DNA from: a virus
Reading direction: 5' to 3' (one strand)
Virus record (IMG/VR): IMGVR_UViG_3300045988_078245
DNA: 31,432 bases
The notes under the pieces were generated by a model. The model ran no database searches. It was not told the DNA's origin and saw only the letters and a list, made by a program, of their open reading frames with translations. The position numbers were made by a program, and so were the translations under genes. Below are positions 100-31,277 of this stretch, in pieces. How positions within the stretch are numbered: position 1 is the first letter of the stretch; each line of letters starts with the position of its first letter.

Positions 100-1205
100 C
101 AGAGACTTTGGGGTCAATGCCGCTGAAGTTTTACCGAAAGTCCGAGGGCAAGATCGAAACGGCAAAAAAGGACGATATGGCGGTGCTGCTGACAGAGCGG
201 CCCAACCCATATATGACACCGGCTACATTTTGGAGCAGCGTGTCGGCGAACCTGGACCACTACGGAAACGCCTATGTGTGGGTGCAGCAAGATTTCACCC
301 GACAGAAGTATGGCGGCTCCGTCAAGGCCAAGGGCCTGTGGATCATGCCATCTAATCAGGTCAATCTGCTTGTGGACGACGCCGGTATCTTCGGGACGGA
401 CGGTGGTGGGCTGTACTACTGGTACCAAGACCGCTATACCGGGCACAGCTATATCTTCGACCCGGACACCGTGCTGCACTTCAAAAACTTCTTTACATTC
501 GATGGGTACCGAGGGGCGTCTGTATTGGAACTGCTGCGGTCCACCGTAGACGGCCAAATTGCTGCACAGGAATACCAAAACAAGCTGTTCAAGAACGGTA
601 TGACAGGAAAGGCCGTGCTGAATTACACAGGCGAGTTGAGCGAGGGCGCCAAAAGAAAAATGATTGCGCAGTTTGAAGAATTCGGTGCAGGTGCCAGCAA
701 CGCCGGACGCATTATCCCGGTACCGCCGGGCTTCAAACTGGAGCCAATCGACTTTAAGTTGTCAGACGCCCAGTTCTTGGAGTTGAAACAGTACGGTGCT
801 TTGCAGCTTGCGGCAGCGTTCGGGATCAAGCCCACGCAGATCAATGACTACTCCAAAAGCAGCTATGCAAACAGCGAACAACAGCAGTTGGCATTTCTGA
901 CCGAGACAATGCTGTTCCCAATTTCCCAAATTGAGCAGGAACTGAACTATAAATGCCTGACAGATCCACAGCGGGCAACTGGATTTTATTACAAGTTCAA
1001 CGATAAAGTGCTGCTGCGGACCGACAGCAAGACGCAGACAGAGATCTTTGCGCAAAAGGTGGACAAGGGCATTGCCACCATCAACGAGTGCAGAGAGCTG
1101 GAAGACAACCCGCCGGTACAGGGCGGAGACAACCCCATTGTCAACGGAACATACATTCCGCTTGATAGAGTTGGTGACCAGTATGGCACCAACAACACAG
1201 ACTGA
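21..1205 (+). CDS. Portal protein, HK97 family (3' part; the true start is at 31264 across the circular junction)
   Basis: 394-aa ORF directly after TerL. Its frame is open to base 1 and in phase with the ATG at 31264. Position and size are typical of a portal. Confidence 0.88.
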   Translation: MEFLGIQTSGKRPQNDVTYYICLKKKAETLGSMPLKFYRKSEGKIETAKKDDMAVLLTERPNPYMTPATFWSSVSANLDHYGNAYVWVQQDFTRQKYGGSVKAKGLWIMPSNQVNLLVDDAGIFGTDGGGLYYWYQDRYTGHSYIFDPDTVLHFKNFFTFDGYRGASVLELLRSTVDGQIAAQEYQNKLFKNGMTGKAVLNYTGELSEGAKRKMIAQFEEFGAGASNAGRIIPVPPGFKLEPIDFKLSDAQFLELKQYGALQLAAAFGIKPTQINDYSKSSYANSEQQQLAFLTETMLFPISQIEQELNYKCLTDPQRATGFYYKFNDKVLLRTDSKTQTEIFAQKVDKGIATINECRELEDNPPVQGGDNPIVNGTYIPLDRVGDQYGTNNTD

Positions 1206-1221
1206 CGGAAAGGAGGATCGT

Positions 1222-1971
1222 ATGAACAAGGTATTGAATTTTGAGCGCTTTAACCGAGTGAGCAACAAGCGAGAAAAAGTCGGCTACTGCGCCCTCTATA
1301 ATGAGGCGGACAGAGCTGTGCTGAACTTCTACGGCGATATTTGCATGTACGATTGCAGCGGTTATGGCGGCGAGTATGCCAACGACAAGTGCCCACAACA
1401 GGTTGCAGACTTTTTTAACCAGATCGAGCCGGACAAGCCTGTGGAAATTCACTTCAACTCCGGCGGCGGCGATGTGTTCGCCGGGATCGCCATTGCCAAC
1501 ATAATCAAAGCACACGCAGGAGAGACCGTCGGATATGTGGACGGTATTGCCGCCAGCATTGCCTCCGTCATTCTGTGCGCCTGCGACCGAGTGGTCATTC
1601 GCACCGGTGCCCAGGTGATGATCCACGACCCGATGACGGGTTGTTGGGGCAATGCTGCTGACTTTGCCGCTGTAATTGGTCAACTGAATACAGCCAAGAA
1701 CTCCATTCTGGAACTGTACAGCACAAAAATGTCCGATAAAGTGGACAAAGAAGCGCTTGCCAACCTTATGACGGCCGAAACTTGGCTGACTTCGCAGAAT
1801 ATCGCCGAAGTGTTCAACTTCGAGGTGGAGAACGCAGAGCCGATGGTGGCCTGTGCAAGCACATTCTACGACAGGTACACCAGCCTGCCGCCCGGTGTCA
1901 ACACCGACACCGCCAAAGACACCAAAAAGGACAAAATCCTGGCGGATTTATACCTTTACGGAACAAAATAA
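1222..1971 (+). CDS. Prohead maturation protease, ClpP-like (S14)
   Basis: ATG 1222 follows RBS aaggagg. Motifs read: FNSGGGDVFAG and VDGIAASIASVI. The gene lies between portal and capsid. Confidence 0.85.
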   Translation: MNKVLNFERFNRVSNKREKVGYCALYNEADRAVLNFYGDICMYDCSGYGGEYANDKCPQQVADFFNQIEPDKPVEIHFNSGGGDVFAGIAIANIIKAHAGETVGYVDGIAASIASVILCACDRVVIRTGAQVMIHDPMTGCWGNAADFAAVIGQLNTAKNSILELYSTKMSDKVDKEALANLMTAETWLTSQNIAEVFNFEVENAEPMVACASTFYDRYTSLPPGVNTDTAKDTKKDKILADLYLYGTK

Positions 1972-1994
1972 AAAATTTTTAGGAGGAAAAACAC

Positions 1995-3176
1995 ATGAAC
2001 AAAAAGCTCAGAGCCCTGCTGGACAGCATTAACGCAAAGAAGCAGGAAGTGCAGGACCTGGCCGAAGCCGGCAAGCTGACCGAGGCCCAAACCGCAAAAG
2101 ACGAATTGCAGCAGTTGCAGCAGAAATTCGATCTGCTGGCTGATGTGATGGACACCAAGCAGGCCAGTGCAGGTACAGAACCGCACCAGGTCATTGATCA
2201 ACAGGAAGTCACACCGAAGCAGCGCAGAGCTGCATTAGCGGCGTACTTAAAAGCAAATTTCAAGGCTTTGAAGAATAAGGGTACTGTCCCGCAAGACTAC
2301 CTTTCCGAACAGCAAAAACAAATCCTGAATGTAATGTCCGAGGGCTCAGATGAAGACGGCGGCTTGACCGTACCGCACGATCTGCAAACGGAGATCAAGG
2401 AGCTGAAACGAGGCCATATTGCATTGGAGGACCATGTCAACATTGAAACCACTGCGGTTAACGAAGGCACGCGTGTGATCGAGGTTGACGCTGAATACAC
2501 GCCCTGGCCGGAGATCGACGAAGCAGCAGAATTCGATGAAGTTGGCACACCCAAAATGCGTTCGATCAAATACAAGATCAAAAAGCGCGGCGGTATCATT
2601 AAGCTGACTTTCGACTTGCTTCGTGATACCGCAGAAAACATTATGTCCTTCCTGACCGAATACTGCGCGAAAAAGAGCATTGCGACACGAAATGCCGCAA
2701 TCTTAGCAGCATTTGACGCAGCAGTTGGTGAAAACACAGTCACCATTGCAGATGTGGATGGGCTGAAAGATGTATTTAATGTCACATTGGATCCAGAAAT
2801 CGCACGAGGCGCGGAGGTAATCACAAATCAGGATGGTTTCAACTTCCTTGACAGACTGAAAGACAAAAATGGCGACTACATTTTGCAGCCGGACCCGATG
2901 AAGAAGACCGGGAAACTACTTTTCGGCACTTATCCGATCACTCCGTTATCAAACAAGACCCTTAAGACAGACGCTTCCAAGGGCGCACCCATCTATATGG
3001 GTGACGGCCACGAGGCAGTAACCCTGTTTGATCGCGAGAAGATGACCATTGAGGCCAACCCCAATGTGTACTGGACTTCTGACACGATGGGTTGCAAGGT
3101 GCGCGACCGCTTTGATGTACAGGTGGTTGACGGCGCGGCCATGGCCAAGGGCTTCTTGAAAGCAGCAGCGGGCTAA
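1995..3176 (+). CDS. Major capsid protein, HK97 fold
   Basis: 393 aa with RBS aggagg 8 nt upstream. N-terminal coiled-coil delta-like region followed by a capsid body. Position after the protease. Confidence 0.88.
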   Translation: MNKKLRALLDSINAKKQEVQDLAEAGKLTEAQTAKDELQQLQQKFDLLADVMDTKQASAGTEPHQVIDQQEVTPKQRRAALAAYLKANFKALKNKGTVPQDYLSEQQKQILNVMSEGSDEDGGLTVPHDLQTEIKELKRGHIALEDHVNIETTAVNEGTRVIEVDAEYTPWPEIDEAAEFDEVGTPKMRSIKYKIKKRGGIIKLTFDLLRDTAENIMSFLTEYCAKKSIATRNAAILAAFDAAVGENTVTIADVDGLKDVFNVTLDPEIARGAEVITNQDGFNFLDRLKDKNGDYILQPDPMKKTGKLLFGTYPITPLSNKTLKTDASKGAPIYMGDGHEAVTLFDREKMTIEANPNVYWTSDTMGCKVRDRFDVQVVDGAAMAKGFLKAAAG

Positions 3177-5646: not shown

Positions 5647-6146
5647 TCCCGGATATAACGGTCAGTTGCCACGGAACAATCTACCGTTCCACGGCGTCCC
5701 TGGAATTCTACCGGCGGTACTGCACCTATATGCGTGCCGTCGGTACGGATGAACCACCGGGACTGCAAGCAACGATCCGCCTTGTACAAGCAGTGCTGCC
5801 AACAGCAGCGGGCTATGTACTGAAAGCCGACATAGAGGAAGTGCTGGTGGCGGGCAACACCGCCCACTTTTTGGCACAGCGGATCACGGAAGCAATCAAC
5901 CGGCTGAGTCCGGAAGAACAGGTGGAACGAGTAAAAAGTCTATTTGATGAATACGACAGAGAGAACGGCTACACGGACGAAGAGGACGAACAAGACTATT
6001 GGAGCGCGCAGTTGGAAGTAATCAACAGCTTACTGGATGTGGCAACCCAATGCCTGCGCTGCGATTTGCAATACGCCCTTACCGGTGATGTGTTTGCCAT
6101 ACTCTCTTTGACCAAGTATAAGCTGGAACACGCAGATGAGCGATAG
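5308..6146 (+). CDS. Tail assembly chaperone GT-like fusion, made by a -1 frameshift at 5625-5631
   Basis: The -1 frame is open from 5601 to 6146. The downstream ORF (ATG 5730) has no RBS. The slippery site lies 13 nt before the G stop codon. Confidence 0.65.
5625..5631 (+). promoter_or_regulatory. -1 programmed frameshift slippery heptamer A_AAT_TTC
   Basis: Fits X_XXY_YYZ in the zero frame of 5308-5646 (codons aat ttc). After slippage it reads aaa ttt in the open -1 frame. Confidence 0.6.
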
Positions 6147-6160: not shown

Positions 6161-9151
6161 ATGGCAGTAGCGTCTATACGACTGACGGCCAGCGCCAACA
6201 GCTATACAGCTGTGATGAAGCAGGCAAACGCCCAAATGCGGCAACTACAGCAGGAGTACTCCTTAGCCGCCCAAAAAGCTAAGCTGATGGGTCAGTCTCA
6301 CCAGGAGGTTGGCGCCCGGGTACAAATGCTCACAGAGAAGATCAAAGCCCAGGAGGAGAAGATCTCCTCCAACAGCAAGCGGGTAGCCGAACTGACAGCT
6401 GAAGACAAGAAACTGTGGCAGCAGCACTCAGAGTTGCAAAACAAGCTCAATCAGACCAAAACCGCCTATGACAAATCGGCCGAGGCAACAGGCAAGAACA
6501 GCAAGGAAACCAAAGCCTTGCAGAAAGAAGTCAAAGCGGCTGAAAAGGCCCTGGCTGAGAATGAAAGCAAGCTACAGAGCAATGCCAATAAACTGGCTAA
6601 GGCCAAGAACCAAGGCACGCTGTTTTCCAAAGAATTGGAGAACATGAAACTGAAGCTGAAAGCAGCCAACAAAGAGCTTTCCTCCGCCAAGCTGAAAGAA
6701 TATGGCGACAAAATGAAAAACGCCGGAGATAAGGTGTCAGCAGCGGGCAAGAAAATGATGGGCATTACCGCCGCCGTCACAGGTGTGGGTGTTGCTTCCG
6801 TCAAGACCGCTTCGGACTTCGACAGCGAGATGTCGCGCGTTAAGGTGATCGCCGGTGCGACCGATGGCGAATTTGAGAAGCTGCGCAAGCAAGCCATCCA
6901 GCTGGGTGCCGACACGGTGTTCTCCGCTTCCGAGTCCGCAGCCGGTATGGAGAACTTCGCAACGGCAGGATATAACGCCAAGGAGATCATGGCAGGTATT
7001 CCCGGCGTACTAAACCTGGCGGCTGTGTCCGGCGGTGATGTAGCAAATGCGGCCGAAGTAATGGCAACCACCATGCGGTCCTTTAATTTGGACGCCAGTG
7101 CGTCTGTACATGTGGCGGACGCATTCGCAAAGGCGGCGGCCGACACCAACGCAGAAGTGGCAGACATGGGCGAGGCCATGAAGTATGCTGCACCCATCGC
7201 TTCCTCATTAGGTATTTCTCTTGAAGAAACAGCAGCTGCGATCGGCATTATGTCCGACCAGGGTATTAAAGGCAGCCAGGCTGGTACATCGCTTCGCGGC
7301 GCATTGTCACGACTGGCAGCGCCCACCAAAGCAATGAGCGCAAAAATGAAGGAATTGGGTGTGGATTTCTTCGACGCAAAAGGGAATATGGTTCCGCTGA
7401 GTGAGCAGGTCGCGCAACTCCAGTCTAAGTTTAAGGGTATGACCCAAGAACAGAAAGAAAACGCCATCGTTACGCTATATGGCAAAAACGCCTTGTCAGG
7501 TATGCAGGCGTTGATCGATCGAGGGTCCGGCGCACTTACAAAAATGACGAACAGCTTTAAGAACGCAGACGGCGCCGCACAGGATATGGCAGACAATATG
7601 CTGGACAACCTGGCCGGCGATGTGGAGAACATGAGCGGTGCTTTTGAGTCTGCTGGTATAAATTTAGCCTCACAGTTTACTCCAGAGATCCGCTCCATCA
7701 CACAAGCTGTGACCAACGCTATAGACAAGTTCAACGGACTAAGCGACAGTCAACAGAAAACGATTGCAGTCATAGCTTTAATTGTGGCCTCCATCGGACC
7801 GCTGCTCCTTGGAATAGGCAAAATTATAGGCACGGTCGGTAGCGCAATATCCGGTATTTCCAAGATCAAGAGCGCAGTGTCCAGCCTTGGCCTGGTCAGC
7901 AAGATTTCAAGCGGAGCCGGGAAGATAGGTAAGGCTATCACAGGTGTGTTTTCGACAATTGGCCTTAAAGGCGTGATTATTGCCGCCGTTGTGGCTGCTG
8001 TCGTAGCCGGTATCGTGCTGATCATTAAGAACTGGGACAAGATCAAACCGGCGTTGGAAAATGTGTGGAATAAAGCGAAAGCCATATTTCAGACAGCCTG
8101 GAATTGGATAAAGAACATCTTCACGACATTGTGGAATTTCATTAAGACAGTATGGAACGGAATAAAGAACGGCATACAGGTGGCCATTATGTTCGTTGCC
8201 AATCTGTTCAGCGCTGCATTTAACATTATAACGCTGCCATTCCGCTTTATATGGGAAAATTGCAAGCAATATGTTTTCGCCGCGTTCAATGCTATTAAGA
8301 CCGTTATTTCAAGCGCACTGCAAGTGATCCGCACCATCATCTCGACTGTCGGTAATGCGATCAAGCGAGTCTGGACCGCTGTGTGGAACGGTATTAAGGC
8401 TGTCCTGACGCCAATTATCAACGGCATTAGGAATATAATCACCAAGGTGTTCACTGCAATCCGTGTTGTGATCGTAACTTATGTGACGATTTGGAAAAAA
8501 ATCATAACCACTGCCTGGAAAGCGATTAAGACCGTAGTTACCACAGTGGTCAACACCATCAGGACTGTTGTATCGACGGTATTCAATGCGCTAAAGAACA
8601 TAATCAGCGTACCGCTGAACTGGATTAGGAACCTGGTAGCGCGAATTTTCGGCGGGATCAAAGACAGCATATCAAACAGTATTAACAATGCGAAAAACAT
8701 TGTGAGCAAAGGCTTGGCTGCCATTCGGGGCTTCTTTAATAAGCTAAAATTGAAATTTCCGAACATTAAGTTGCCGCACTTTAGTATCACCGGCGGCTTC
8801 AGCCTGGATCCACCATCTGTACCCAAACTGAATATCGACTGGTACGCCGGCGGCGCCATTATGCGCGGGCGACAGATCTTTGGCGCATACGGCGGCACAC
8901 TGCTGGCAGGCGGTGAACCCAGCACCGGCGGGGAAGCAATTCTGCCGTTGAGTCCGTTCTATACCGCACTAAATAAAATGCTGGACAACCAGCTCCAGCG
9001 GCTGATCGCCTGTGTTCGTCCGACAGTGATCGTACATACTTACCTGGACGGTAAGGAGATCGGCAGCAAGGTCGTGCAGCAAGTCACAGACGAGGTCACC
9101 AAGGACCAACGAAATTATGAAATGGCAAAGGGGTTGGACACAGATGGATAA
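6161..9151 (+). CDS. Tape measure protein
   Basis: 996 aa: coiled-coil N-terminus, a hydrophobic segment, then periodic W-x2-IK repeats. Canonical position. Confidence 0.9.
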   Translation: MAVASIRLTASANSYTAVMKQANAQMRQLQQEYSLAAQKAKLMGQSHQEVGARVQMLTEKIKAQEEKISSNSKRVAELTAEDKKLWQQHSELQNKLNQTKTAYDKSAEATGKNSKETKALQKEVKAAEKALAENESKLQSNANKLAKAKNQGTLFSKELENMKLKLKAANKELSSAKLKEYGDKMKNAGDKVSAAGKKMMGITAAVTGVGVASVKTASDFDSEMSRVKVIAGATDGEFEKLRKQAIQLGADTVFSASESAAGMENFATAGYNAKEIMAGIPGVLNLAAVSGGDVANAAEVMATTMRSFNLDASASVHVADAFAKAAADTNAEVADMGEAMKYAAPIASSLGISLEETAAAIGIMSDQGIKGSQAGTSLRGALSRLAAPTKAMSAKMKELGVDFFDAKGNMVPLSEQVAQLQSKFKGMTQEQKENAIVTLYGKNALSGMQALIDRGSGALTKMTNSFKNADGAAQDMADNMLDNLAGDVENMSGAFESAGINLASQFTPEIRSITQAVTNAIDKFNGLSDSQQKTIAVIALIVASIGPLLLGIGKIIGTVGSAISGISKIKSAVSSLGLVSKISSGAGKIGKAITGVFSTIGLKGVIIAAVVAAVVAGIVLIIKNWDKIKPALENVWNKAKAIFQTAWNWIKNIFTTLWNFIKTVWNGIKNGIQVAIMFVANLFSAAFNIITLPFRFIWENCKQYVFAAFNAIKTVISSALQVIRTIISTVGNAIKRVWTAVWNGIKAVLTPIINGIRNIITKVFTAIRVVIVTYVTIWKKIITTAWKAIKTVVTTVVNTIRTVVSTVFNALKNIISVPLNWIRNLVARIFGGIKDSISNSINNAKNIVSKGLAAIRGFFNKLKLKFPNIKLPHFSITGGFSLDPPSVPKLNIDWYAGGAIMRGRQIFGAYGGTLLAGGEPSTGGEAILPLSPFYTALNKMLDNQLQRLIACVRPTVIVHTYLDGKEIGSKVVQQVTDEVTKDQRNYEMAKGLDTDG

Positions 9152-18040: not shown

Positions 18041-18180
18041 TGTACACACTTCTCCTTTGCATATAGCAGCGGGCAGCGCCTAAAAAAGGGCGCAAAAAGC
18101 CCCGCTTGATTTTTTAGCAGGGCTGTGATACAATAACCAGTGTTGGGTGGGTTATGTGCACGCACATCTCCTGCTTATTG

Positions 18181-18215
18181 GCTCTCCCCTGCGCCAACAG
18201 GGGGGAGCTTTTTTT
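18181..18215 (+). terminator. + oriented intrinsic terminator between two - strand genes
   Basis: An 11-bp stem (GCTCTCCCCTG / CAGGGGGGAGC) with a 6-nt loop, followed by T7. The - orientation has no U tract. Confidence 0.6.
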
Positions 18216-18217
18216 AT

Positions 18218-19662: not shown

Positions 19663-19715
19663 TTCTTTTTTCCTCCTATTAAGTTATTACATCTATAATC
19701 ACGGCACGCCGTGGA

Positions 19716-20891: not shown

Positions 20892-21122
20892 ATACACGGC
20901 CAGCCTTTTGGGCGGCGGCAGAACTAAGCAGGCAGTGGGACCTTTTTTCATTTCTTCTCTTTCTTCTTTTTTTTGTCAAATTTACCCATTATGTTCCTGC
21001 TTCCGGTGCCCGCCCCACCCAACATCACATTTATCGCCAACGGCACTTTTGCCGTACAGCGGGCAGCTTGCGGCTCTGCCGCTTGCCCAAAGGGCTGGCC
21101 TAATCAAGAAAGGAGAATAGCA

Positions 21123-21779: not shown

Positions 21780-22011
21780 TAAATATATTGATCTGATGAT
21801 CGTGACCAACGGCAGCGTGTACCGGGCCCCCGGGTTCAGCGATGCACAGCCCGGTTACAAAGCGATGGTGCAAGGCGTCATCCACGATGTGCTGGAGGTG
21901 GTGACTGTACCCGTGAGTGAGGCGCTGCTGACGCTGGCCAGGGTGGATAGCGTTATTCATTCGCTGGAATATGATGAATACAGCAGCGGGCAAAAAGAAA
22001 AAGCCGACTGA
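21766..22011 (+). CDS. Hypothetical protein
   Basis: 81 aa, overlapping the previous stop. An alternative start is ATG 21772. Confidence 0.5.
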   Translation: MTMSDKYIDLMIVTNGSVYRAPGFSDAQPGYKAMVQGVIHDVLEVVTVPVSEALLTLARVDSVIHSLEYDEYSSGQKEKAD

Positions 22012-22410: not shown

Positions 22411-23163
22411 ATGCCATGGGTGCAAAAGACCACCTACGCAGGTAAATGTATCTACATTCAGCGGCATTACTCCTCACGCTACGGAAGCAAGAATAAATGC
22501 ACCAGGGGTAGCAATTACGGAAAGACAAGCGAGGCGCAGGCGGCAGTCAACAATCGCCAGGCGTGCCTACAGCAGGAGATGATCTTCAATGCGAATTTCG
22601 GACCAGGTGACCTGACAGCTACATTTACATTCCGAAAGGCGGACAGGCCCAAGGACCTGCAAGAGATCAAGAAACTGTGGGCCGCCTATATGGCCAAACT
22701 GCGATATGCCTACAAAAAGGCCGGCGTAGACTTCAAGTGGATGAGAGCCATTGAGACACCGGACAAGAACCCACATGTCCACATGGCGCTGTCCGGTATT
22801 GACTTGACCAAGCTGCCCAGGTGGACATACGGTCGGGTGGAATTCGTGCCAATAGATGATCGAGACCACCACACCTACGGCGGGGACCTGAGAGAGGAGA
22901 CCCACATCAAGCAAGGACACGAGGGCAAGTACACCACGGCCAAGTCCAGGGTGTGTTTTAGCCGGAGTCGCAACCTGGTGGTACCTGAACCGGAATACCA
23001 GATCATCTATAGCGACCACTGGGCAGATGAACCAAGAGCACCAAAGGGCTACTATGTGGTCAAGGACACGCTGAACAACTGGGAGGACGAAGTAACAGGC
23101 TTTAAGTATCAATCCTATGTGCTCTGCCCGATCTCAAAGAACCAACCGCACCGGCGGTGTTAG
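22411..23163 (+). CDS. HUH-type rolling-circle Rep-like protein (pC194/Rep_1-like motifs)
   Basis: 250 aa with RBS aaaggag. Motifs in canonical order: LTATFTF (motif 1-like), KNPHVHMAL (HUH) and EGKYTTAKS (Tyr motif). Confidence 0.5.
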   Translation: MPWVQKTTYAGKCIYIQRHYSSRYGSKNKCTRGSNYGKTSEAQAAVNNRQACLQQEMIFNANFGPGDLTATFTFRKADRPKDLQEIKKLWAAYMAKLRYAYKKAGVDFKWMRAIETPDKNPHVHMALSGIDLTKLPRWTYGRVEFVPIDDRDHHTYGGDLREETHIKQGHEGKYTTAKSRVCFSRSRNLVVPEPEYQIIYSDHWADEPRAPKGYYVVKDTLNNWEDEVTGFKYQSYVLCPISKNQPHRRC

Positions 23164-23173: not shown

Positions 23174-23509
23174 ATGACATACATACAGCAATGGGAACGA
23201 ATGCGGGACAAGGTGCGCAGCTTGGAGCAGGAACGCCAAACGCAGCTGATCTTGGCGCCGCACAACGCATACGGCTTTAAGCTAAACATCAACCACCCGC
23301 TGATCCGGCCAAAGTGGGACGCCTTTAAGAGTGCCAAAGGCCTGGGCCAGTATGGCATGACGGACGATCTGCGCCGGGAGTTTGAGGAGACAGTGATTGC
23401 CAGCAAATATATGCAAAAATGCCTGGAACAGGAGCAGCAGCACATTGGTGCAGTGGAGCACCAGTTCATCCGTATGGCTTACGCTCCTGCGGAGCAGGCA
23501 GCGGGCTGA
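23174..23509 (+). CDS. Hypothetical protein
   Basis: 111 aa with RBS aggaggg. It ends in ...EQAAG, encoded by the polar motif. Confidence 0.6.
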   Translation: MTYIQQWERMRDKVRSLEQERQTQLILAPHNAYGFKLNINHPLIRPKWDAFKSAKGLGQYGMTDDLRREFEETVIASKYMQKCLEQEQQHIGAVEHQFIRMAYAPAEQAAG

Positions 23510-23919
23510 TGGGTACCCAAGAACACTGGACTGCTGCCCAGTACCAGGAGTATCTGCGGCAGCGGGCAAAGGGAAACAACAAATACCACGCCGTAAAGGT
23601 AGAGGTGGACGGCACAGTATATGCCAGCCAAAGCGAAAGCAGGCGCGCCAAAGAGCTGCACCTACTGGAGCGGCACGGGCTGGTGCGCAATCTGCGCGAG
23701 CAGGTGCCGTATGAGCTTATTCCTGCCGGCGTTGGCAAATACCGTAAAGAGCGCTCAGTGGTGTACAAGGCGGATTTCGTTTATGAAGTATGCCAGCCGG
23801 ACGGCACCTGGAAGCAGGTGGTAGAGGACACCAAGGGCGCCAAAACAAAGGAATATATCATCAAACGAAAACTCATGCTGTACATTCACGGCATAAGCGT
23901 AAAGGAGACAGACAAATGA
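23509..23919 (+). CDS. DUF1064-like protein (putative junction-resolving nuclease fold)
   Basis: ATGA start/stop overlap with the previous gene. Motif read: NKYHAVKVEVDGTVYASQSESRRAKELHLLERHGLVRNLREQVPYEL. Confidence 0.65.
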   Translation: MGTQEHWTAAQYQEYLRQRAKGNNKYHAVKVEVDGTVYASQSESRRAKELHLLERHGLVRNLREQVPYELIPAGVGKYRKERSVVYKADFVYEVCQPDGTWKQVVEDTKGAKTKEYIIKRKLMLYIHGISVKETDK

Positions 23920-24606: not shown

Positions 24607-24920
24607 CCGAGAAAATCCAAAAAGCCATTGATAAGATCGACCAGGAGGCGGAGAAGATGGGCAGCGCAACCGTGCGCCTGCTTTGCTCACACATTATAGA
24701 CCACTGCCTGGTCAATGATGAAAACGCGGACAAGGTACTGGCTGAGGGCAAGAGCCTAAAAGCCTGCTGGGATCACATCACCAACAACGCCCGGAAACAA
24801 GCAGCGGGCAACTGCGCAGCCGTGCCGGACGACACCGTGTACGAATGGGCAGCGGGCTATTACGGCTTTACCGCCGAAGAGACCAAGGCAGAGATCATCG
24901 ACCTGCTGGATCTGCTGTGA
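24603..24920 (+). CDS. PcfK-like protein
   Basis: 105 aa. Reads SLKACWDHITNNARKQAAGNCAAVPDDTVYEWAAGYYGF, which I remember as resembling the PcfK family. Adjacent to the PcfJ-like gene. Confidence 0.55.
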   Translation: MTEKIQKAIDKIDQEAEKMGSATVRLLCSHIIDHCLVNDENADKVLAEGKSLKACWDHITNNARKQAAGNCAAVPDDTVYEWAAGYYGFTAEETKAEIIDLLDLL

Positions 24921-24929
24921 GGTGTCGAT

Positions 24930-26606
24930 ATGGGAAAAAAACTGAACACGCTTACGCAGGAACAGGCTCGGAAGATTTGGAACGGCCGCCCGAAACTGCC
25001 GGAGAAAAAGATCAACAAGTTTGCCCACGAAGAGGTATTCGTCAATGAGCAGTACTTTTTCAAACACAAAGAATGCGGTCACAGGTATGGCTATTGTACC
25101 GCTTGCGGCAAGGATGTGCAGATCGACATTGAGAACATGCGACTATGGACGGACAAGCACGCAGCCTGCCGCTCTGCACGGCATAACGACACCGTATGCT
25201 GCCCGGTCTGCGGGCACGAAGTTCAAGTCAAAGACGCCGGGCGTGGCCGTAGTCAGTTGATAAACACGGCAGTGGTGGCGGTAACACAGCGAACACGGAA
25301 CGGCGGCATATTGCTTTCTTTCGTTCGAGTGTATGAGGATTATACGCGCAACTATAAAGCCGCGCCGGAAAGGGGCACACTGCTGTACGCTGCATACTTC
25401 AATCTCGGCCAGCACTTTGTAGCCGAACAAACATACGGTGGAGGGATGTACATAAGCGTAAAGCAAAAGCCAACACGCCGACTGCCATGCACGGTGGAGC
25501 CGGTTAAGCTGGATCACAACAGCTGGAAATGTACAGAGGGAGAGGGCGCAAAACTGCTTGGATTTGAAGAAGCGCTGGAGAGGAGCAATCTGCGCTATCT
25601 TCCATGGGAAGCGTACCACGAGTGTGCGCAGCAACTGTACCGTAGCGCTATGGCCAACTACCCGGTCAACCTGCTTGGGTTACTGTATCAATATAGCCGG
25701 TACCCGGTGCTTACAGAGCGTCTAATAAAAGAGGGCAACGGTGACCTGGTAGCCGAACAGGTGGAGTGGAATTGTACAGCCGGTCTGGACTACAAGCAAG
25801 TGGTGCCTTACAAGGCTATGCGACTGACCAAGCAGGAGTACCGTATGTTAAAGACGCAAGACAACATTTGCTGTTCAACGCTCAAAGCAACAAAGGCATT
25901 GAAAAAATACGGCTGCAAAATGACAGACGAAAATTTCCGCTTTTTTCTTGTTTTTCAGCACAGCTGGAGCCAGCAGAAATGCTATAAGGCGCTTGATGTT
26001 TTGCGGAGACACCTACCTCCGCAAAAGGCGGTGAACTGGGTAAACCGGCAGGCAGCTGGAGGATATGGAACGCCAGCCAATGTGCTGTCAGACTACAGTG
26101 ACTATATGGACCAGTGCAGTAGACTGGGCCTGGATGTTAACCGTAAAGAGGTAGCCGTACCGCAGAATCTGCGAGATCTGCACCGGCAGTATTCCGAAGA
26201 ATTGACACGCCGAGCTAATGAAAAGAAAGCAAAAAAGCAAGCCGAGCGGGCAAAGAAGTTAGCTAAGGATCTGCCAAAACTGAAACGAAAATATACATAC
26301 GCAAGCAGCGGGCTGTTCATTCGGCCGGCCGAGGGACCGGAAGATCTGCTGAAAGAGGGTTGTGCCCAGCACAACTGTGTGTACTCCTGTTACACGGAAC
26401 AATACCTGGACAGAAAGACGGATATACTTTTTGTACGAAAGCAGTCGGACCCGGATCAGTCCTATGTGACCGTTGAGTTCAAAAACGGCACCGTTATTCA
26501 ATGCAGAGCGGATCACAACCGACCTGCACCGCCGGATGTGCAGGAGTTTATGCAAGCCTGGCTTGCCTACCTAAAGTCGAACAGAAAAACGAAAGCAGTC
26601 AGTTAA
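24930..26606 (+). CDS. PcfJ-like protein with an N-terminal Cys4 zinc-ribbon region
   Basis: 558 aa. C-terminus reads EGCAQHNCVYSCYTEQYLDRKTDILFVRK...YVTVEFKNGTVIQCRADHNRP. N-terminal Cys pairs: CTACGK and CPVCGH. Confidence 0.65.
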   Translation: MGKKLNTLTQEQARKIWNGRPKLPEKKINKFAHEEVFVNEQYFFKHKECGHRYGYCTACGKDVQIDIENMRLWTDKHAACRSARHNDTVCCPVCGHEVQVKDAGRGRSQLINTAVVAVTQRTRNGGILLSFVRVYEDYTRNYKAAPERGTLLYAAYFNLGQHFVAEQTYGGGMYISVKQKPTRRLPCTVEPVKLDHNSWKCTEGEGAKLLGFEEALERSNLRYLPWEAYHECAQQLYRSAMANYPVNLLGLLYQYSRYPVLTERLIKEGNGDLVAEQVEWNCTAGLDYKQVVPYKAMRLTKQEYRMLKTQDNICCSTLKATKALKKYGCKMTDENFRFFLVFQHSWSQQKCYKALDVLRRHLPPQKAVNWVNRQAAGGYGTPANVLSDYSDYMDQCSRLGLDVNRKEVAVPQNLRDLHRQYSEELTRRANEKKAKKQAERAKKLAKDLPKLKRKYTYASSGLFIRPAEGPEDLLKEGCAQHNCVYSCYTEQYLDRKTDILFVRKQSDPDQSYVTVEFKNGTVIQCRADHNRPAPPDVQEFMQAWLAYLKSNRKTKAVS

Positions 26607-26615: not shown

Positions 26616-27572
26616 ATGGATAACCAAATCACCACAATGCAAGAAGTAACGCCCGCAACCCAGAAAGCCTACGACACCCACGCGAGGATCCTGGCCAACG
26701 GTCAGGTAATGGCCAGAGCACTGGTAGATGTGTGCCACGATCTTAAGACAATGCGGGATGAGGGCCTATACACGGAGCTGGGCTATGACACATTCGAGGA
26801 GTACGCCGAGCAAGCCTGCGGCATTAAGCAGCGGCAAGCCTATTCCTACATATCAGCCTATGAAAAGCTGGGCCAGAAGTATATGGCCGACCACGCCGAC
26901 CTGGGGATCACCAAGCTGGAGTTGATCTCTCAAATCAGCAGTTATGAGCGTGAGGAATTCCTGGAGGATGTGGACGCAGAAAGCGCTACGGTCCGGGAGC
27001 TGAAAGCAGAGGTTGAACGCTACAAGAAGCAGACGGAACAGCTGACCTTCGATCTTGGCCAGGCACAGAGCGAATTAAGCGAAGCACCGGAGCCGGTGGA
27101 CACGGATGCACTCCGTTCTTCCATTGAGCAGGAAGTAAAAGCCAAGTACAGCGCCCAGCTGGAAGAATTGCAGCAGCGGGCCGACGCAGCGCCGGACCCG
27201 GAGGTGATACGAAAGGAAGCGGAAAAGGAAGCCGCCAAGGAATACAAAGCCAAGCTGGCAACGGCAAAGGCAGACGCCGAGAAGAAAGCCAAAGCCGCTG
27301 TAGAAAAGCTGGAGCAGGAAAAGGCAGACCTGGAACGGCAGTTGGACAGCAGCACCACCAAGTTGGACGCCGCTGTTCGGCAAGCCAAGGCAGCGGGCGC
27401 AGACACGGATGTAGCCGCCTGCCGGGTGTACTTCACCGAACTGCAACAAACCGCCGCAAAGGTACAGGAGCTGATCGGCAAGATCAATGCCAAAGACCCG
27501 GCCACCGGAGCCAAGCTCTCCGCCGCCGTTATTTCCGTTTTGCAGTCAACTGCGAAGAATTTGGAGGCATAA
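26616..27572 (+). CDS. DNA-binding protein: ParB/KorB-HTH-like N-terminus plus a long Ala/Lys/Glu coiled coil
   Basis: 318 aa with RBS aaggagg. Reads LYTELGYDTFEEYAEQACGIKQRQAYSYISAYEKLG. Confidence 0.55.
   Translation: MDNQITTMQEVTPATQKAYDTHARILANGQVMARALVDVCHDLKTMRDEGLYTELGYDTFEEYAEQACGIKQRQAYSYISAYEKLGQKYMADHADLGITKLELISQISSYEREEFLEDVDAESATVRELKAEVERYKKQTEQLTFDLGQAQSELSEAPEPVDTDALRSSIEQEVKAKYSAQLEELQQRADAAPDPEVIRKEAEKEAAKEYKAKLATAKADAEKKAKAAVEKLEQEKADLERQLDSSTTKLDAAVRQAKAAGADTDVAACRVYFTELQQTAAKVQELIGKINAKDPATGAKLSAAVISVLQSTAKNLEA
27539..27556. repeat. Palindrome TTTGCAGT-CA-ACTGCGAA, copy 3 of 3 (one mismatch)
   Basis: Lies inside the last 34 nt of CDS 26616-27572 and ends 17 nt before ATG 27574. 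Confidence 0.85.
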
Positions 27573-28368: not shown

Positions 28369-28372
28369 CTTT

Positions 28373-28460: not shown

Positions 28461-28925
28461 ATGGCACTGCTTAAAATGTGCCGTTGCGGCAAGATCATTC
28501 CGCAGGCGCTGGAGATGTGTCCGGAGTGTGCACAGCACGCGGCAGACCGTCACAAGGAGTACAACGCAACCAGGAGAGACAAGAGAGCGTATGCGTTCTA
28601 CACCAGCGCCGAATGGCGCAAAGCAAGAGCGCTCCGCTTGCAACACGCCGGAGGACTGGATCTGTATGCACTATATGTGGATAGAGTGATCCAATACGCC
28701 GAGATGGTCCACCATATCGTGCCATTGAGCGAGGACTGGAGTAAGCGCTGCGATCAGCGCAACCTTTTTCCTCTCACCAACGCCAACCACAACAAGATTG
28801 AGGCGTTGTACGACTCCTCTATTGCTAAAAAAAAGCAAACGCAGCAGCTTTTGCGGCGGCTGCTGGAGCGGTTCGAGGCGGAGCAGAGGGGGGTGCAAGG
28901 GAAGTTTGGGGCACCCCGAGGATAG
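28461..28925 (+). CDS. HNH endonuclease (packaging-associated)
   Basis: 154 aa. Reads CRCGK...CPEC, HHIVPLSEDWSKR and NANHNKIE. Directly upstream of TerS. Confidence 0.85.
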   Translation: MALLKMCRCGKIIPQALEMCPECAQHAADRHKEYNATRRDKRAYAFYTSAEWRKARALRLQHAGGLDLYALYVDRVIQYAEMVHHIVPLSEDWSKRCDQRNLFPLTNANHNKIEALYDSSIAKKKQTQQLLRRLLERFEAEQRGVQGKFGAPRG

Positions 28926-29009
28926 TCGCGCCCACTCTTTCTTACGGAGAAAACTCCCCACGGAGGCTCAAAGGCTTACAGACCTGACAGATAGATTATT
29001 TTTGAAGTA

Positions 29010-29025
29010 TTACGGAATTACGGAA
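29010..29025 (+). repeat. Tandem TTACGGAA, two copies (a third copy, TTACGGAG, at 28942-28949)
   Basis: Read directly in the HNH-to-TerS intergenic region. Confidence 0.75.
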
Positions 29026-29038
29026 AGGAGTGACCGGA

Positions 29039-29548
29039 ATGGCCGGAAAAAGGCAGTCAACAGACGCAGTTATCGCCAAAGGCAAGAAGCACTTGACTAA
29101 GGCTGAGATCGAAGAGCGCAAGCAAGCGGAACTGGTTGCTCCGGCTGATCATATTGAGTACCCAAAAGGCGCACCAAGGAAGTATAAACAGCGTTTCGAT
29201 GAGATCGTTGCGGAACTGCGACGGCTTGGAGAGAACACCGTCAGCAACCTGGACAGTCAGGCGCTGTTCCGGCTGGTCGTGGTAGAGCGGGACTTCTTGG
29301 AAGTCACCAAGCAGCTGACTAAAACGCAGATGATGAAAAAAGTCGAACGACCGGACGGCACCGTTACGATGGCGTACAACTCAACCTACGAGAATTTGCA
29401 AATTGCCCGCAGCCGATTATGGCAGCAATGCCGGCAGGGCGCAGCCGACTTCGGCCTAACAATGAGTGCCCGCTTCGGCCTGGTGGCGCCAAAGAAAAAA
29501 GAGCAGCCGGTCAACAAATTTTTGGTCGGTGATGATGTTGCTGACTGA
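29039..29548 (+). CDS. terS: Terminase small subunit (P27-family-like)
   Basis: ATG 29039 lies 8 nt after AAAGGAG. About 169 aa. The C-terminus reads FGLTMSARFGL. Overlaps the TerL start. Confidence 0.78.
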   Translation: MAGKRQSTDAVIAKGKKHLTKAEIEERKQAELVAPADHIEYPKGAPRKYKQRFDEIVAELRRLGENTVSNLDSQALFRLVVVERDFLEVTKQLTKTQMMKKVERPDGTVTMAYNSTYENLQIARSRLWQQCRQGAADFGLTMSARFGLVAPKKKEQPVNKFLVGDDVAD

Positions 29549-31277
29549 TCGCACAACAGACTACGCAAAGCGGGTGTGCAGCGGGCAAGTGGCAGGTGTC
29601 GGGAAAAGAGAAATCCAAGCCTGCCAGCGCCATTTAGATGACCTGAAAAAAAGCGACCTGGCGCCATTCGCCTATTACTTCGATCCGCGTCAAGCGCAAA
29701 TTTTGATCAACTTTGCCGAGAAGCTGACCATTGCCGAGGGTGACGAAGAGACGCCGTTCGTCTGCGCTGACTTCCAGGCGTTTATACTTGGGAGCCTGCA
29801 CGGCTGGCGAACAAAAGACGGCAACCACCGCCGGTACCGGACCTCATATATCCAACTGGCACGGCAGCAGGGCAAAAGCATACTCAATGGGATCCTGGCC
29901 ACATTCTACGGCAACTTCACCAAATACAAATATGCGCAGGTTTACTGTGCAGCCACCAAGACAGACCAGGCAAAGATCGTGTTCAACGAAGTGGTGAAGT
30001 TCATCCGCAGCGACCACGACCTGGAGGCCCTATTCAATGTGCACGAGCACAACTCAACTATAGATTGCAAGCTGACCGGTAGCCACATACGAGCGCTATC
30101 CGGTGACACCAAGCGGATAGATGGTTTCCGACCATACCTGGGGATCGTGGACGAATACCACGCCCATAAGAACAACCAGGTTTATAAGCTGCTGGAGGGC
30201 GGCACAAAGTTTATGCAATCCTGCCTGATCAGCGTTATCACTACTGCCGGGTTCAATCTCAAATATCCGTGTCACAAGATGTATGAGACCTGCTGTAGTA
30301 TCTTGGACGGTACTTTCGATAACCCGACACGATTTGTTTTTATTGCAGAAATGGACCAGGGCGACGACTATTTTGAACCGACCAACTGGCTAAAGTCCAA
30401 TCCCCTGCTGCGAGACAGGCCGGATCTGCTGGGTAACATGATCGCCACAGCCAACGAGGCCCGGCGTGAGGGCGGAGACACCCTCCGTGACTTCGTTGTA
30501 AAGCAGCTGAACTGCTGGATCCAAGCAGCGGGCAACAACTACATCGACAACGCCGAAGAATGGACGGCAGGTGCGTCAAACCGAACCTTAAAGGACTTTA
30601 TCGGTTCCAAGGCTTACGCCGGTTTGGACCTGTCCTCCGGCGGCGATCTGACCAGTCTAAGTATCGTTGTCCCCTACTATGTGGACGGCGAAAAACGGTA
30701 CTTTGTTTTCAGTCACAGCTTCATGCCGTCCAGGCGGCTGGAAGAACATATACAGTCGGACGACGCCCCATACGATGTGTGGGTGCGGCAGGGTCTGATT
30801 ACGGTAACGGAGACCATGGGCGGCGTAAAAACAGACTACCGATACATTCTCAATTACCTAAAACAGCTGATTACAGACTATAACTTGGATCTACAGGTCA
30901 TCTGTTACGACCCGCACAACGCTTCTGCATTTCTGGCAGACCTGGAGGAGATCGCCCCCTGCCTGTCCGTAACGCAAACGCACCGGGTGCTATCAACCCC
31001 TACGGAGGACCTACGGCTGGAGATCAAGGCAGGGCATGTGGAGTATAACGGCGACGACGCCCTTTTGACCCGATCCATGCTGTCCGCCAAGACGGTGGGC
31101 AATTCCTATGGGGAGGTCAAGATCGACAAGGAAGTCAAGACGGACCGTATCGACCCGGTAGACGCGCTGATCGACGCCTGGATAATGGCAATGCAGGAGG
31201 AGCAGGCAGTCAACTTGGACGACGTGGTTGAAGAATATCTTTCACTGATGGGAGCGAAATCAAATGCCATTTTTTGA
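29532..31277 (+). CDS. terL: Terminase large subunit
   Basis: 581 aa. Walker A-like LARQQGKS. Reads IVDEYHA, and the nuclease-domain region contains ICYDPHNA and DPVDAL. Confidence 0.9.
   Translation: MMLLTDRTTDYAKRVCSGQVAGVGKREIQACQRHLDDLKKSDLAPFAYYFDPRQAQILINFAEKLTIAEGDEETPFVCADFQAFILGSLHGWRTKDGNHRRYRTSYIQLARQQGKSILNGILATFYGNFTKYKYAQVYCAATKTDQAKIVFNEVVKFIRSDHDLEALFNVHEHNSTIDCKLTGSHIRALSGDTKRIDGFRPYLGIVDEYHAHKNNQVYKLLEGGTKFMQSCLISVITTAGFNLKYPCHKMYETCCSILDGTFDNPTRFVFIAEMDQGDDYFEPTNWLKSNPLLRDRPDLLGNMIATANEARREGGDTLRDFVVKQLNCWIQAAGNNYIDNAEEWTAGASNRTLKDFIGSKAYAGLDLSSGGDLTSLSIVVPYYVDGEKRYFVFSHSFMPSRRLEEHIQSDDAPYDVWVRQGLITVTETMGGVKTDYRYILNYLKQLITDYNLDLQVICYDPHNASAFLADLEEIAPCLSVTQTHRVLSTPTEDLRLEIKAGHVEYNGDDALLTRSMLSAKTVGNSYGEVKIDKEVKTDRIDPVDALIDAWIMAMQEEQAVNLDDVVEEYLSLMGAKSNAIF

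Follow-up and report, generated by a model that had tools for sequence, protein, structure and literature searches.

Arrays of Chi sites in phages that lack recombination genes are already known (Bobay 2013, PMC3784561; Zheng 2025, PMC12315714), and include those of LLS of Escherichia coli, MD8 of Pseudomonas aeruginosa and their relatives, which are Chi-rich lambdoid phages without a Rec module. LLS carries one Chi per 1.86 kb with a strand split of 20:3, and in MD8 the split is 32:0 (PMC12315714; PMC3784561). The Chi sites of lambda, LLS and MD8 lie on the top strand and are active for entry from the right end. P1 has one Chi per 1.9 kb. For hosts that use AddAB the Chi words are 5-7 nt long, namely AGCGG in Bacillus subtilis, GAAGCGG in Staphylococcus aureus and GCGCGTG in Lactococcus lactis. 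Here we describe a polar array in a phage of Clostridiales which, if our reading of it is true, carries into this group a strategy that certain phages of E. coli and Pseudomonas are known to use.

The DNA analysed (the window, 31,432 nucleotides) holds a complete-looking temperate HK97-type cos phage of about 31 kb, with an HNH-TerS-TerL module. An exact search of the whole window found CAGCGGGC 27 times on the + strand (one per 1.16 kb) and its complement GCCCGCTG not once, reproducing both the split and the positions given in the initial annotation. Dinucleotide shuffles yielded a mean of 1.79 copies on both strands (maximum 5), and Markov models of orders 1-4 predicted 1.04 (orders 1-2), 1.63 (order 3) and 3.69 (order 4) copies on the + strand. 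In these comparisons, of which the annotation had recommended Markov orders 3-5, CAGCGGGC is the top octamer of the window, ranking first for strand skew and over-representation as well; its excess on the + strand is 15-25-fold, and the other top-ranked words all overlap it. The preceding base is G in 25 of the 27 copies, as annotated, and A in the other two, the 9-mer GCAGCGGGC occurring 25:0 where 0.35-1.5 copies are expected. Beyond this G no conserved flank was found around the 27 copies, and one-mismatch variants (5 on the + strand, 7 on the - strand) are not enriched, in keeping with the proposal of a short word. The runner-up among words of the same composition reaches only 13 copies on both strands summed, so a general excess of GC-rich words is not the cause; no other GC-rich word behaves like CAGCGGGC, which argues against the composition artefact of which the annotation had warned.

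As summarised in Table 1, the array traverses the leftward-transcribed lysogeny block without changing strand. In + strand genes the word is translated as AAG (10 copies), QRA (5) and SG (5), confirming that all three frames are used, and seven copies are inside - strand genes (PAA 5, ARC 2). The eight copies previously placed in or between - strand genes are those from 17601 to 20051, counting the intergenic one at 18067, and adding those at 16770 and 21057 gives 10 copies in 4.3 kb. Two of the three copies called intergenic clearly are (16770 and 18067); the third, at 21057, sits in a TTG-start ORF that is possibly not a real gene.

Table 1. Features of the phage genome and the 27 copies of CAGCGGGC.
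Feature	Position	Strand	Context	Intact in relatives
attP core	16564..16624		Matches the empty attB beside thiF over 53-59 bp (host MAG contigs L172, L173, L174)	
Packaging module	28461..31277	+	HNH endonuclease 28461-28925; TerS (Terminase_4 family) 29030-29548; TerL 29466-31277	
Lysogeny block	16847..20463	-	Integrase, DEDDh exonuclease, ORF, ImmA, XRE repressor	
Replication initiator	22411..23163	+	phrog_3584; HVH (HUH-like) motif	
Copy	969..976	+	Portal gene, read Gln-Arg-Ala	19/19
Copy	3166..3173	+	Major capsid gene end, Ala-Ala-Gly-stop	14/16
Copy	5806..5813	+	Tail chaperone ORF	16/16
Copy	6741..6748	+	Tape measure gene	15/16
Copy	12341..12348	+	Tail fibre gene	
Copy	12413..12420	+	Tail fibre gene	
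Copy	13479..13486	+	Small ORFs 3' of fibre gene	
Copy	16770..16777	+	Intergenic, between attP core and integrase stop	
Copy	17601..17608	+	Antisense to integrase gene (-)	27/27
Copy	18067..18074	+	Intergenic, integrase/exonuclease genes	27/28
Copy	18520..18527	+	Antisense to DEDDh exonuclease gene	
Copy	18964..18971	+	Antisense to DEDDh exonuclease gene	
Copy	19012..19019	+	Antisense to DEDDh exonuclease gene	
Copy	19126..19133	+	Antisense to DEDDh exonuclease gene	
Copy	19966..19973	+	Antisense to ImmA-like protease gene	31/31
Copy	20051..20058	+	Antisense to ImmA-like protease gene	28/31
Copy	21057..21064	+	Start of early-right region, within/just upstream of HTH ORF	30/31
Copy	21984..21991	+	Small early ORF	9/29
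Copy	23499..23506	+	ORFs downstream of rep	28/30
Copy	23560..23567	+	ORF downstream of rep	25/30
Copy	24802..24809	+	PcfK-like gene	
Copy	24850..24857	+	PcfK-like gene	
Copy	26306..26313	+	PcfJ-like gene	
Copy	27174..27181	+	318-aa early gene without assigned function	
Copy	27391..27398	+	Same 318-aa early gene	12/28
Copy	29579..29586	+	TerL start	18/19
Copy	30526..30533	+	TerL	18/19

A comparison with related phages, as the annotation had suggested, used 47 loci that are about 90-92% identical. In these CAGCGGGC was intact in 85.4% of cases, compared with 60.9% for control 8-mers, and the local control mean was exceeded at 22 of 24 sites. Each of the eight positions is 95-99% conserved and the flanks, which keep the usual codon periodicity, 88-98%, so the eight bases are better kept than their surroundings; polarity was 202:0 in one locus set and 325:5 in the other. 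Together with the three reading frames and the antisense and intergenic copies, this supports the earlier claim that CAGCGGGC is a polar DNA signal under positive selection, independent of transcription. Those frames and copies, and the variable flanks, also exclude an origin as a protein motif or a repeat element.

The orientation of the array agrees with that of the packaging genes. HNH, TerS, TerL and portal are all encoded on the + strand, the strand of CAGCGGGC, and the packaging module indicates packaging in the + direction, the direction of injection being predicted likewise from gene order. From the HK97-type order HNH-TerS-TerL, an established guide to its position, the cos site probably lies in or near 28926-29029. 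The right 39% of the genome linearised at cos holds 18 of the 27 copies (P=0.003) and the last 22% holds seven, and copies also occur all through the first-packaged half. With this geometry CAGCGGGC has the orientation that an enzyme coming in from the right cos end would read, which matches the Chi sites of lambda, LLS and MD8. Searches of the phage proteins against Pfam, PHROGs and PDB sequences found no Gam and no Erf/RecT/Sak-type recombinase, as the annotation had stated. Several early proteins (orf219, a PcfJ-like protein and orf318) have no assigned function, so that "no Rec module" is a prediction from HMM and sequence searches.

Starting from what is directly seen (the array with its polarity and selection, the way it lies with respect to the packaging genes, the fact that no rec or gam gene was detected, and the other words in relatives described below), we think it probable, though far from certain, that CAGCGGGC, mostly as GCAGCGGGC, is a Chi-type word for a host helicase-nuclease acting on double-strand ends, placed in the single orientation read from the right cohesive end. 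The reader would presumably be AddAB, as expected in a Clostridiales host, and CAGCGGGC would then be the Chi of that host. The right end would be packaged last and injected first, and terminase cutting of the concatemer would also leave it free. A helicase-nuclease loading there and travelling leftward would have a few hundred bases to a few kb to go before meeting CAGCGGGC from the 3' side, and would then turn from degradation to RecA loading. This switch would protect the phage genome; a phage that lacks its own recombinase would also gain by it the host recombination needed for making or repairing concatemers. The initial annotation had proposed protection of a rolling-circle tail or of the packaged linear genome, and the former fits the geometry less well than entry at the cos or injection end: after a nick by the HUH-type Rep in the + strand, an enzyme would enter the tail end in the + direction, which calls for Chi on the - strand.

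Relatives carry polar words of their own. In 72 relatives with a TerL 57-61% identical there is a dominant polar word co-oriented with TerL, examples being GGCAGCAG (20-29:0-1), GCAGCAGT (11-16:0) and CCCGGCGG (12-16:0-1). In the 9.4 kb upstream of TerS these words are 3-4 times as dense as downstream of it, a right-end bias that they have in common with CAGCGGGC. The word follows the TerL tree only loosely: GGCAGCAG is shared by two TerL clades with 68-71% identity to each other, the word differs or is missing among members of one clade that are 80-89% identical, and within clades the word shifts together with GC content. In the early regions, which have the highest density of words, sublineages show no homology to one another, and apparently unrelated contigs behave in the same way (L065 and L127 with GCGGGCGG at 11:0 and 9:0, L023 with GCGGGCGC at 11:0), L065 and L127 showing no detectable similarity to the packaging module in the parts retrieved. 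These three observations favour a reader on the host side.

The only proteins common to all sublineages with a polar word are an ArpU-like regulator, HNH, TerS, TerL and head-tail proteins, which leaves room for a reader encoded by the phage. The packaging machinery itself (HNH, TerS, TerL) could read the word, either as a signal to the translocating terminase near the unit end, slowing the motor or priming cos cleavage, or as a T5-type one-strand nicking site for HNH. We consider this unlikely, even though the word always runs along the packaging direction, is densest in the last 9-12 kb packaged and has no clear enrichment in the host chromosome, and HNH enzymes encoded beside terminases are known to nick DNA at short sites. 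The distribution of words between and within TerL clades, the behaviour of L065 and L127 and the copies in the first-packaged half all argue against it, and we know of no terminase or HNH that uses dispersed 8-mers. That the word is a replication signal, marking priming or primosome-assembly sites for complementary-strand synthesis on the displaced strand or the lagging-strand template while the HUH-like Rep initiates unidirectional or rolling-circle replication, is very doubtful. A one-strand polar word would suit unidirectional replication, and besides its HVH motif the Rep matches Pfam REP_ORF2-G2P slightly under the cut-off, but this Rep is absent from most relatives with polar words, whose early regions are unrelated, and it is cos and TerS, not rep, that anchor the density gradient. 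Bacterial primases recognise sites of 3 nt, and the known single-strand origins are structured rather than 8-mers.

The host belongs to the uncultured human-gut Clostridiales genus UMGS824, in which the phage integrates beside thiF, prophage junctions having been observed that support the attP core placement. In a 58-kb sample of its chromosome CAGCGGGC occurs 10 times where 3.9-5.6 copies are expected (1.8-2.6-fold; P=0.006-0.06 depending on the background), and over about 45 kb of contiguous chromosome the strands divide 6:4. It ranks about 200-300 among 22,295 octamers by frequency (top ~1%), 1884 by order-3 over-representation, and 13th of 280 words of the same composition. Neither AddAB nor RecBCD genes were seen in these 58 kb. 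The enrichment and skew that the annotation had looked for in the host are therefore weak, whereas a classical Chi is expected to be more prominent and co-oriented; with a roughly two-fold signal and no polarity, CAGCGGGC is a candidate for the host Chi. This signal would be easier to accept if the reader were not a general repair enzyme, and the word might be read by a host translocase or defence helicase-nuclease other than AddAB and RecBCD, as a self or decoy mark that happens to be polar and has Chi-like action. Polarity, selection and right-end bias would fit this equally, but we judge it decidedly improbable: we know of no system of this kind that recognises a polar word of 8 bp, and the close analogy with Chi-rich phages would make AddAB or RecBCD the economical choice.

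The host data also bear on a passive or trivial origin, which would make CAGCGGGC a KOPS/SRS-type host word, an uptake sequence, the result of Type III restriction avoidance, a dispersed repeat, or an artefact of coding or composition; this is hardly credible and largely refuted. Like the FtsK/SpoIIIE words (KOPS GGGNAGGG, SRS GAGAAGGG), which are read by a DNA translocase, CAGCGGGC is a polar, G-rich octamer, but those are chromosome-wide host signals, about one per 10 kb, that switch strand at dif, and the host flanks here, with low density and no polarity, are not KOPS-like. Phage genomes are not known to use KOPS or SRS or to be enriched in them. Uptake sequences are found on either strand. 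In T7 all sites of the asymmetric EcoP15I word CAGCAG have one orientation, but this avoids head-to-head sites and goes with a mild excess on the used strand; restriction avoidance would account for the missing - strand copies and not for the + strand excess.

Compared with the Chi words of AddAB hosts, CAGCGGGC is likewise a short polar word of the kind that a helicase-nuclease reads from the 3' side. It does contain AGCGG, but the link to B. subtilis Chi drawn in the annotation is a resemblance only. Its presence in the host at about one per 6 kb, close to the density of S. aureus Chi (once per 8.4 kb), speaks for the Chi reading, but those words have 5-7 nt and are strongly co-oriented with replication (89.7% in S. 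aureus), which the host sample is not. The classical temperate phages of AddAB hosts that we checked for arrays (r1t, phi11 and phi105) carry no dense ones, unlike this phage, the host-Chi counts being 0:0, 5:0 and 32:11 (50 and 26 expected for the last), so a Firmicutes precedent is lacking. P1 and its relatives, with 50 Chi sites and RecBCD-dependent growth, resemble this phage in that the word is equally dense outside and inside ORFs; the Chi sites of P1, however, face both ways and cluster at both ends, serving to circularise a terminally redundant genome, while CAGCGGGC points one way.

LLS and MD8 are lambdoid phages of Proteobacteria, and biochemistry or genetics has established their word as the Chi of the host's RecBCD, whereas here an HK97-type HNH-cos phage infects an uncultured Clostridiales host with presumed AddAB, and right-end clustering is weaker (7/27 in the last 22%, against 10/23 in LLS). 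The density of the word, which the annotation had set far above that of Chi in typical hosts, falls within the published range of Chi-rich phages. Otherwise the likeness is close. All three are temperate siphoviruses without a detectable recombinase or RecBCD inhibitor, in which one octamer is the most frequent word of the genome (about one per 1.2-1.9 kb), all or nearly all copies run along the packaging direction (20:3, 32:0 and here 27:0), density rises toward the right end, and the word stands out less in the host genome than in that of the phage (MD8 Chi ranks 43rd in PAO1). By HMM and sequence searches this phage falls in the published class that combines no Rec module with high Chi.

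An exact search of the whole window recovered 27 copies of CAGCGGGC on the + strand, all where the initial annotation had placed them, and none of its reverse complement. By comparison, dinucleotide-preserving shuffles gave a mean of 1.79 copies on both strands together (maximum 5), and the Markov expectation for the + strand was between 1.0 and 3.7 copies (order 1 to 4). The word is the commonest octamer in the window and ranks first for skew and for excess, with the remaining high-ranking words all overlapping it, while its 9-mer form, GCAGCGGGC, is split 25:0 against 0.35-1.5 expected. One-mismatch variants number 5 on the + strand and 7 on the - strand. Since the runner-up among words of identical base composition has just 13 copies, both strands together, GC-rich words are not in general excess in the window, and the similar excess that would have marked a composition artefact was not seen. 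The context of the copies was also as first described: the preceding base is G in 25 and A in 2, and the flanks outside this position are random. Genes on the + strand read the word in three frames (Ala-Ala-Gly in 10 copies, Gln-Arg-Ala and Ser-Gly in 5 each), seven copies lie antisense within leftward genes, and at least two are intergenic. Random flanks, together with copies in three frames, antisense and between genes, led us to reject a dispersed repeat or a protein-motif repeat. Wherever it could be checked, therefore, the earlier description of the array was correct.

The window contains a second fully polar word, CAGTCAAC, split 8:0 against 0.94 expected (shuffle maximum 3), often extended to GCAGTCAAC and spread over the whole genome. 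It is split 4:1 in one relative (L003), has one copy in the host locus L174, and may represent another signal of this type.

We measured selection on CAGCGGGC across relatives averaging 92% identity, represented by 47 loci. In this comparison with related phages, of the kind the initial annotation had proposed, the octamer had survived unchanged in 85.4% of site-by-relative comparisons; the corresponding figure for the remaining 8-bp windows of these alignments was 60.9%, and 22 of the 24 testable sites lay above the local control mean. Per-position identity was 0.95-0.99 within the word and 0.88-0.98 in the flanks, where it followed the usual three-base periodicity; position -1, at 0.889 between relatives, had no extra conservation. 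Polarity was kept as well, with splits of 202:0 in TerL-centred loci and 325:5 in integrase-centred loci, the five minority copies representing one site in an alternative cassette. This conservation and polarity in the relatives indicate that CAGCGGGC is maintained by selection on the DNA itself. The array is thus real, strongly selected and acts at the DNA level. We also weighed coding, composition, repeat elements, uptake sequences, KOPS and Type III avoidance as explanations and rejected each of them, and a trivial origin of the array seems to us extremely improbable.

Two relatives (L147 and L166) carry a 10-kb island of 30% G+C directly past the integrase, encoding a HATPase_c_3 protein together with an ABC-type ATPase for which models of defence ATPases gave matches (mad3, AriA, PtuA and GajA). 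The island is probably defence cargo or a hitch-hiking element, and its single copy of CAGCGGGC fits recent acquisition.

The window is a complete-looking temperate siphovirus genome of 31.4 kb and 52% G+C in which no tRNA gene was found, and among GenBank phages it matches just one human faecal contig, with 91% identity across 8 kb. HK97-type cos phages carry an HNH endonuclease gene beside those for TerS and TerL. Because the window has this arrangement, we place cos directly upstream of TerS, with packaging presumably in the + direction.

Location of the genes, sites and polar words considered here (strand as in the window or contig)
Feature	Location	Strand or direction	Copies (+:-)
Structural genes, in order: portal, protease, capsid, connector and tail genes, tape measure, Dit, Tal, fibre, holin	window		
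Lysogeny block: tyrosine integrase, DEDDh exonuclease, ImmA-like protease, XRE repressor	window	leftward	
Early genes: replication initiator with HVH motif, PcfK-like and PcfJ-like pair, unknown ORFs	window	rightward	
End module: ArpU-like regulator, HNH endonuclease, Terminase_4-family TerS, TerL	window end		
attP/attB core, about 55 bp	window 16564-16624; L172:59-115; L173:3539-3590; L174:3681-3738		
DEDDh (RNase T / DnaQ-like) exonuclease gene	window 18218-19357	-	
PcfK-like and PcfJ-like gene pair	window 24567-26606	+	
Putative cos	window, near 28.9-29.0 kb		
CAGTCAAC copies	window 3181, 7747, 9658, 21446, 22544, 27543, 29054, 31207		
Low-G+C island in relatives	L147:4790-14767; L166:11214-21191		
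Protein repeat with five GCGGGCGG copies	L235:9940-10522		
GGCAGCAG	most 44-47% G+C TerL relatives		20-29:0-1
GCAGCAG	44-47% G+C TerL relatives, e.g. L387		up to 54:1 (8.6 expected)
GCAGCAGT	41-43% G+C TerL relatives		11-16:0
CCCGGCGG	59% G+C TerL relatives		12-16:0-1

All 27 copies of CAGCGGGC share the strand that encodes TerS, TerL and portal and that runs in the presumed packaging direction. Chi is recognised only when the enzyme approaches from its 3' side. The 'top-strand' Chi sites of phages lambda, LLS and MD8 are in the orientation active for entry at the right end (PMC12315714). If cos lies where gene order suggests, CAGCGGGC would have the orientation read by an enzyme entering the right end of the window's genome. 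After linearisation at 28,980, the right 39% of the genome holds 18 of the 27 copies (P=0.003), and the right 22% holds 7, which is not significant. Searches of the window against Pfam and PHROGs gave no match to Erf, RecT, Red-beta, Sak, Sak4 or Gam, and searches of PDB sequences with three early proteins of unknown function returned nothing. In agreement with the initial annotation, then, no recombinase or Gam is detectable in the window by HMM and PDB sequence searches, although three early proteins have no assigned function and the lysogeny block includes a DEDDh exonuclease gene; given these negative searches, the phage fits the published class with no Rec module and high Chi content.

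On balance we lean towards CAGCGGGC being a Chi-type signal read by a host end-processing helicase-nuclease that enters the right cos end. The enzyme would load at this end and read the word, and reading would protect the phage genome and recruit host recombination for a phage without a recombinase of its own. The earlier proposal that the array protects the tail of rolling-circle intermediates fits the geometry less well: if Rep nicks the + strand, an enzyme would enter the tail in the + direction and would require Chi on the - strand. That the word is instead a replication-priming signal strikes us as very unlikely.

Two features of the leftward and early regions deserve mention in their own right. 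The exonuclease gene of the lysogeny block has the densest local occurrence of CAGCGGGC, with four antisense copies, and its product matches the PADLOC model 'DEDDh, cas-associated' and that of the candidate system PDC-S48. The early region includes the PcfK-like and PcfJ-like pair, families named after the conjugative plasmid pCF10, for which we found no relatives among PDB sequences.

A search by TerL alignment identified 72 more distant relatives in IMG/VR (L348-L419), with TerL proteins 57-61% identical to that of the window. CAGCGGGC was enriched in none of them, and nearly all had a dominant polar word of their own, co-oriented with TerL; besides the words in the table, GGCAGAGG was dominant in a further sublineage. 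The 9.4 kb upstream of TerS carried 3-4 times as many copies of these words per kb as the 12 kb downstream (1.65 versus 0.43 and 1.09 versus 0.36). The only genes common to the window and these relatives are ArpU, HNH, TerS, TerL and head-tail genes; the early regions of the relatives, where the words are densest, are unrelated to that of the window.

These observations bear on the main rival to the Chi reading, namely that the words act in cis as a hitherto unrecognised code for the HNH-TerS-TerL packaging module of the phage itself, which we think improbable though worth weighing. Each sublineage would then have its own 7-9-bp word, oriented in the packaging direction and denser towards the end of the genome unit, a scheme to which we give limited credence. 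The word might, again with rather low probability, signal a nearby cos to the translocating motor or direct nicking of one strand. In its favour, no gene set other than the packaging module is shared by every phage with the polar-word pattern. Against it, word choice tracks the TerL tree only loosely. Thus GGCAGCAG is used by two TerL clades that are just 68-71% identical, it is entirely absent from one member (L381) of another clade with 80-89% identity, and within one clade at 85% identity the word moves to GCAGCAGT as G+C falls from 47% to 42%. Moreover, such words also occur in two gut viral contigs whose retrieved parts bear no detectable resemblance to the window. A host-side reader with a specificity that varies between host groups accounts for this distribution across TerL clades and dissimilar contigs more readily than a phage protein does.

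In those two contigs, L065 and L127, the word GCGGGCGG is split 11:0 and 9:0, and the array in L065 extends across long leftward ORFs. L023, whose TerL and portal are distantly related to those of the window (24-36% identity), has GCGGGCGC at 11:0, and the polar octamers of all three contigs have a GCGGGC core in common with CAGCGGGC. Two other candidates did not hold up. L117, at 70% GC the single distant relative in which CAGCGGGC had seemed to recur (6:0), was rejected as an ascertainment artefact, since the remainder of its contig had no further + copies and the split became 6:1 over 14.9 kb. The 10:0 split of GCGGGCGG in L235, from a Christensenellaceae MAG, was discarded because half of the copies fall inside an internal protein repeat: five lie with similar flanks within 600 bp of one 958-aa ORF, where the repeat mimics a polar DNA word. 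Such repeats call for caution in word-based scans, and an IMG/VR scan for two CAGCGGGC copies within 31 bp returned mostly tandem repeats and high-GC chance matches.

A host-side reader directs attention to the bacterium itself. IMG/VR contains many relatives with integrases 94-100% identical to that of the window; no exact match to the protein is on record, and a first genome scan with it gave no match. In several of these relatives the likeness to the window ends at about 16564 and the contig runs on into a thiF-family gene and an alpha-L-arabinofuranosidase gene; they are integrated prophages. When species-representative genomes were searched with the arabinofuranosidase, 'uncultured Clostridiales bacterium UMGS824' matched at 100% and three further MAGs of 49-56% G+C at 96-98%. 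Three of these MAGs have an empty attB, with 53-59 bp matching the attP core of the window. The phage thus integrates beside the thiF-family gene, upstream of the arabinofuranosidase gene, in a UMGS824-like genus, with no tRNA involved. Two of the bins (L172 and L173) are labelled 'Agathobacter rectalis' and 'Bifidobacteriaceae bacterium'; they carry the same locus of 54-56% G+C with 96-98% protein identity to UMGS824, and their taxonomic labels look wrong. Remoter relatives of the locus, in MAGs labelled Eubacterium sp. or Ruminococcaceae (36-45% G+C), essentially lack CAGCGGGC.

The host chromosome was sampled through four MAG loci, one contig retrieved with the host GltX protein and metagenome contigs retrieved with host peptides, 58.3 kb in all after removal of redundancy; a chimeric protein query for several host genes returned almost only GltX homologues, and a chimeric peptide query of metagenomes mostly one permease gene. 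No dispersed repeat was found in this assembled host DNA (~58 kb), which does not include the addAB genes. CAGCGGGC occurs in it 10 times, on both strands (about one per 6 kb), where 2.5 (order 0), 3.9 (order 1) or 5.6 (order 3) copies are expected (P 0.0003-0.06 overall, and 0.006-0.06 against the expectations of 3.9-5.6). It ranks 13th of 280 words of the same composition, which average 3.3 copies; by raw frequency its place is roughly 200th-300th among 22,295 octamer pairs (top ~1%), and by order-3 excess 1884th. The strand split was 6:4 across ~45 kb of contiguous chromosome, a small sample, and three of the four minority-strand copies fall within one gene. For reference, E. coli Chi is found once every 4.6 kb (PMC12315714). 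The S. aureus 'Chi' is found once every 8.4 kb, with 89.7% co-orientation with replication. In the sampled host chromosome, CAGCGGGC is therefore at most modestly enriched and has no visible polarity, and this signal is the weakest link of the Chi reading. In 1.9 Mb of chromosomal loci from related MAGs, which may not be the hosts of the phages with these words, neither GGCAGCAG nor GCAGCAGT was enriched, an observation of little weight.

The same data bear on other host-side roles. A word of the KOPS/SRS type, which orients a translocase, was rejected given the non-polar host flanks (6:4) and a density in the phage 5 times that in the host, and a DNA uptake sequence (DUS/USS) was rejected given the 27:0 split in the phage and the sparse host copies. 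That some other host translocase reads CAGCGGGC we consider unlikely.

If CAGCGGGC is the host Chi, the strategy of combining many Chi sites with no recombinase, documented to date in the RecBCD hosts Enterobacteria and Pseudomonas, would reach AddAB-type gut Firmicutes and cover a large family of human-gut temperate phages. Uncultured bacteria would then have their Chi words revealed cheaply by phage genomes, since a word that is only faint in the host chromosome stands at 15-25-fold excess in a 30-kb phage; CAGCGGGC, GGCAGCAG, GCAGCAGT, CCCGGCGG, GCGGGCGG and GCGGGCGC are the candidates. Chi words bear on recombination hotspots, on the sites of CRISPR spacer acquisition, on host prediction for metagenomic phages and on the design of DNA able to survive entry into these bacteria. 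Were the phage's own packaging module to read the word, this would be a new kind of packaging signal.

A full-text literature search for CAGCGGGC returned only primers and unrelated sequences. Among classical temperate phages whose AddAB hosts have a known Chi, we found no Chi array in r1t, phi11 or phi105 (0:0, 5:0 and, against 50 and 26 expected, 32:11), and neither these phages nor literature searches provided a Firmicutes precedent. The statistical case for Chi in phages was made earlier by Bobay et al. 2013 (PMC3784561), and Zheng et al. 2025 describe in Chi-rich phages the same pattern as in the window: LLS, an E. coli phage, has 23 Chi sites (20:3, 1 per 1.86 kb), and the P. aeruginosa phage MD8 has 'Chi' at 32:0, confined to the top strand and clustered at the right end (PMC12315714). 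Should the Chi reading be true, as we are modestly inclined to believe, the novelty here is that the strategy of LLS and MD8 is found again, but in a Clostridiales phage family, with lineage-specific words and only a faint signal in the host chromosome.
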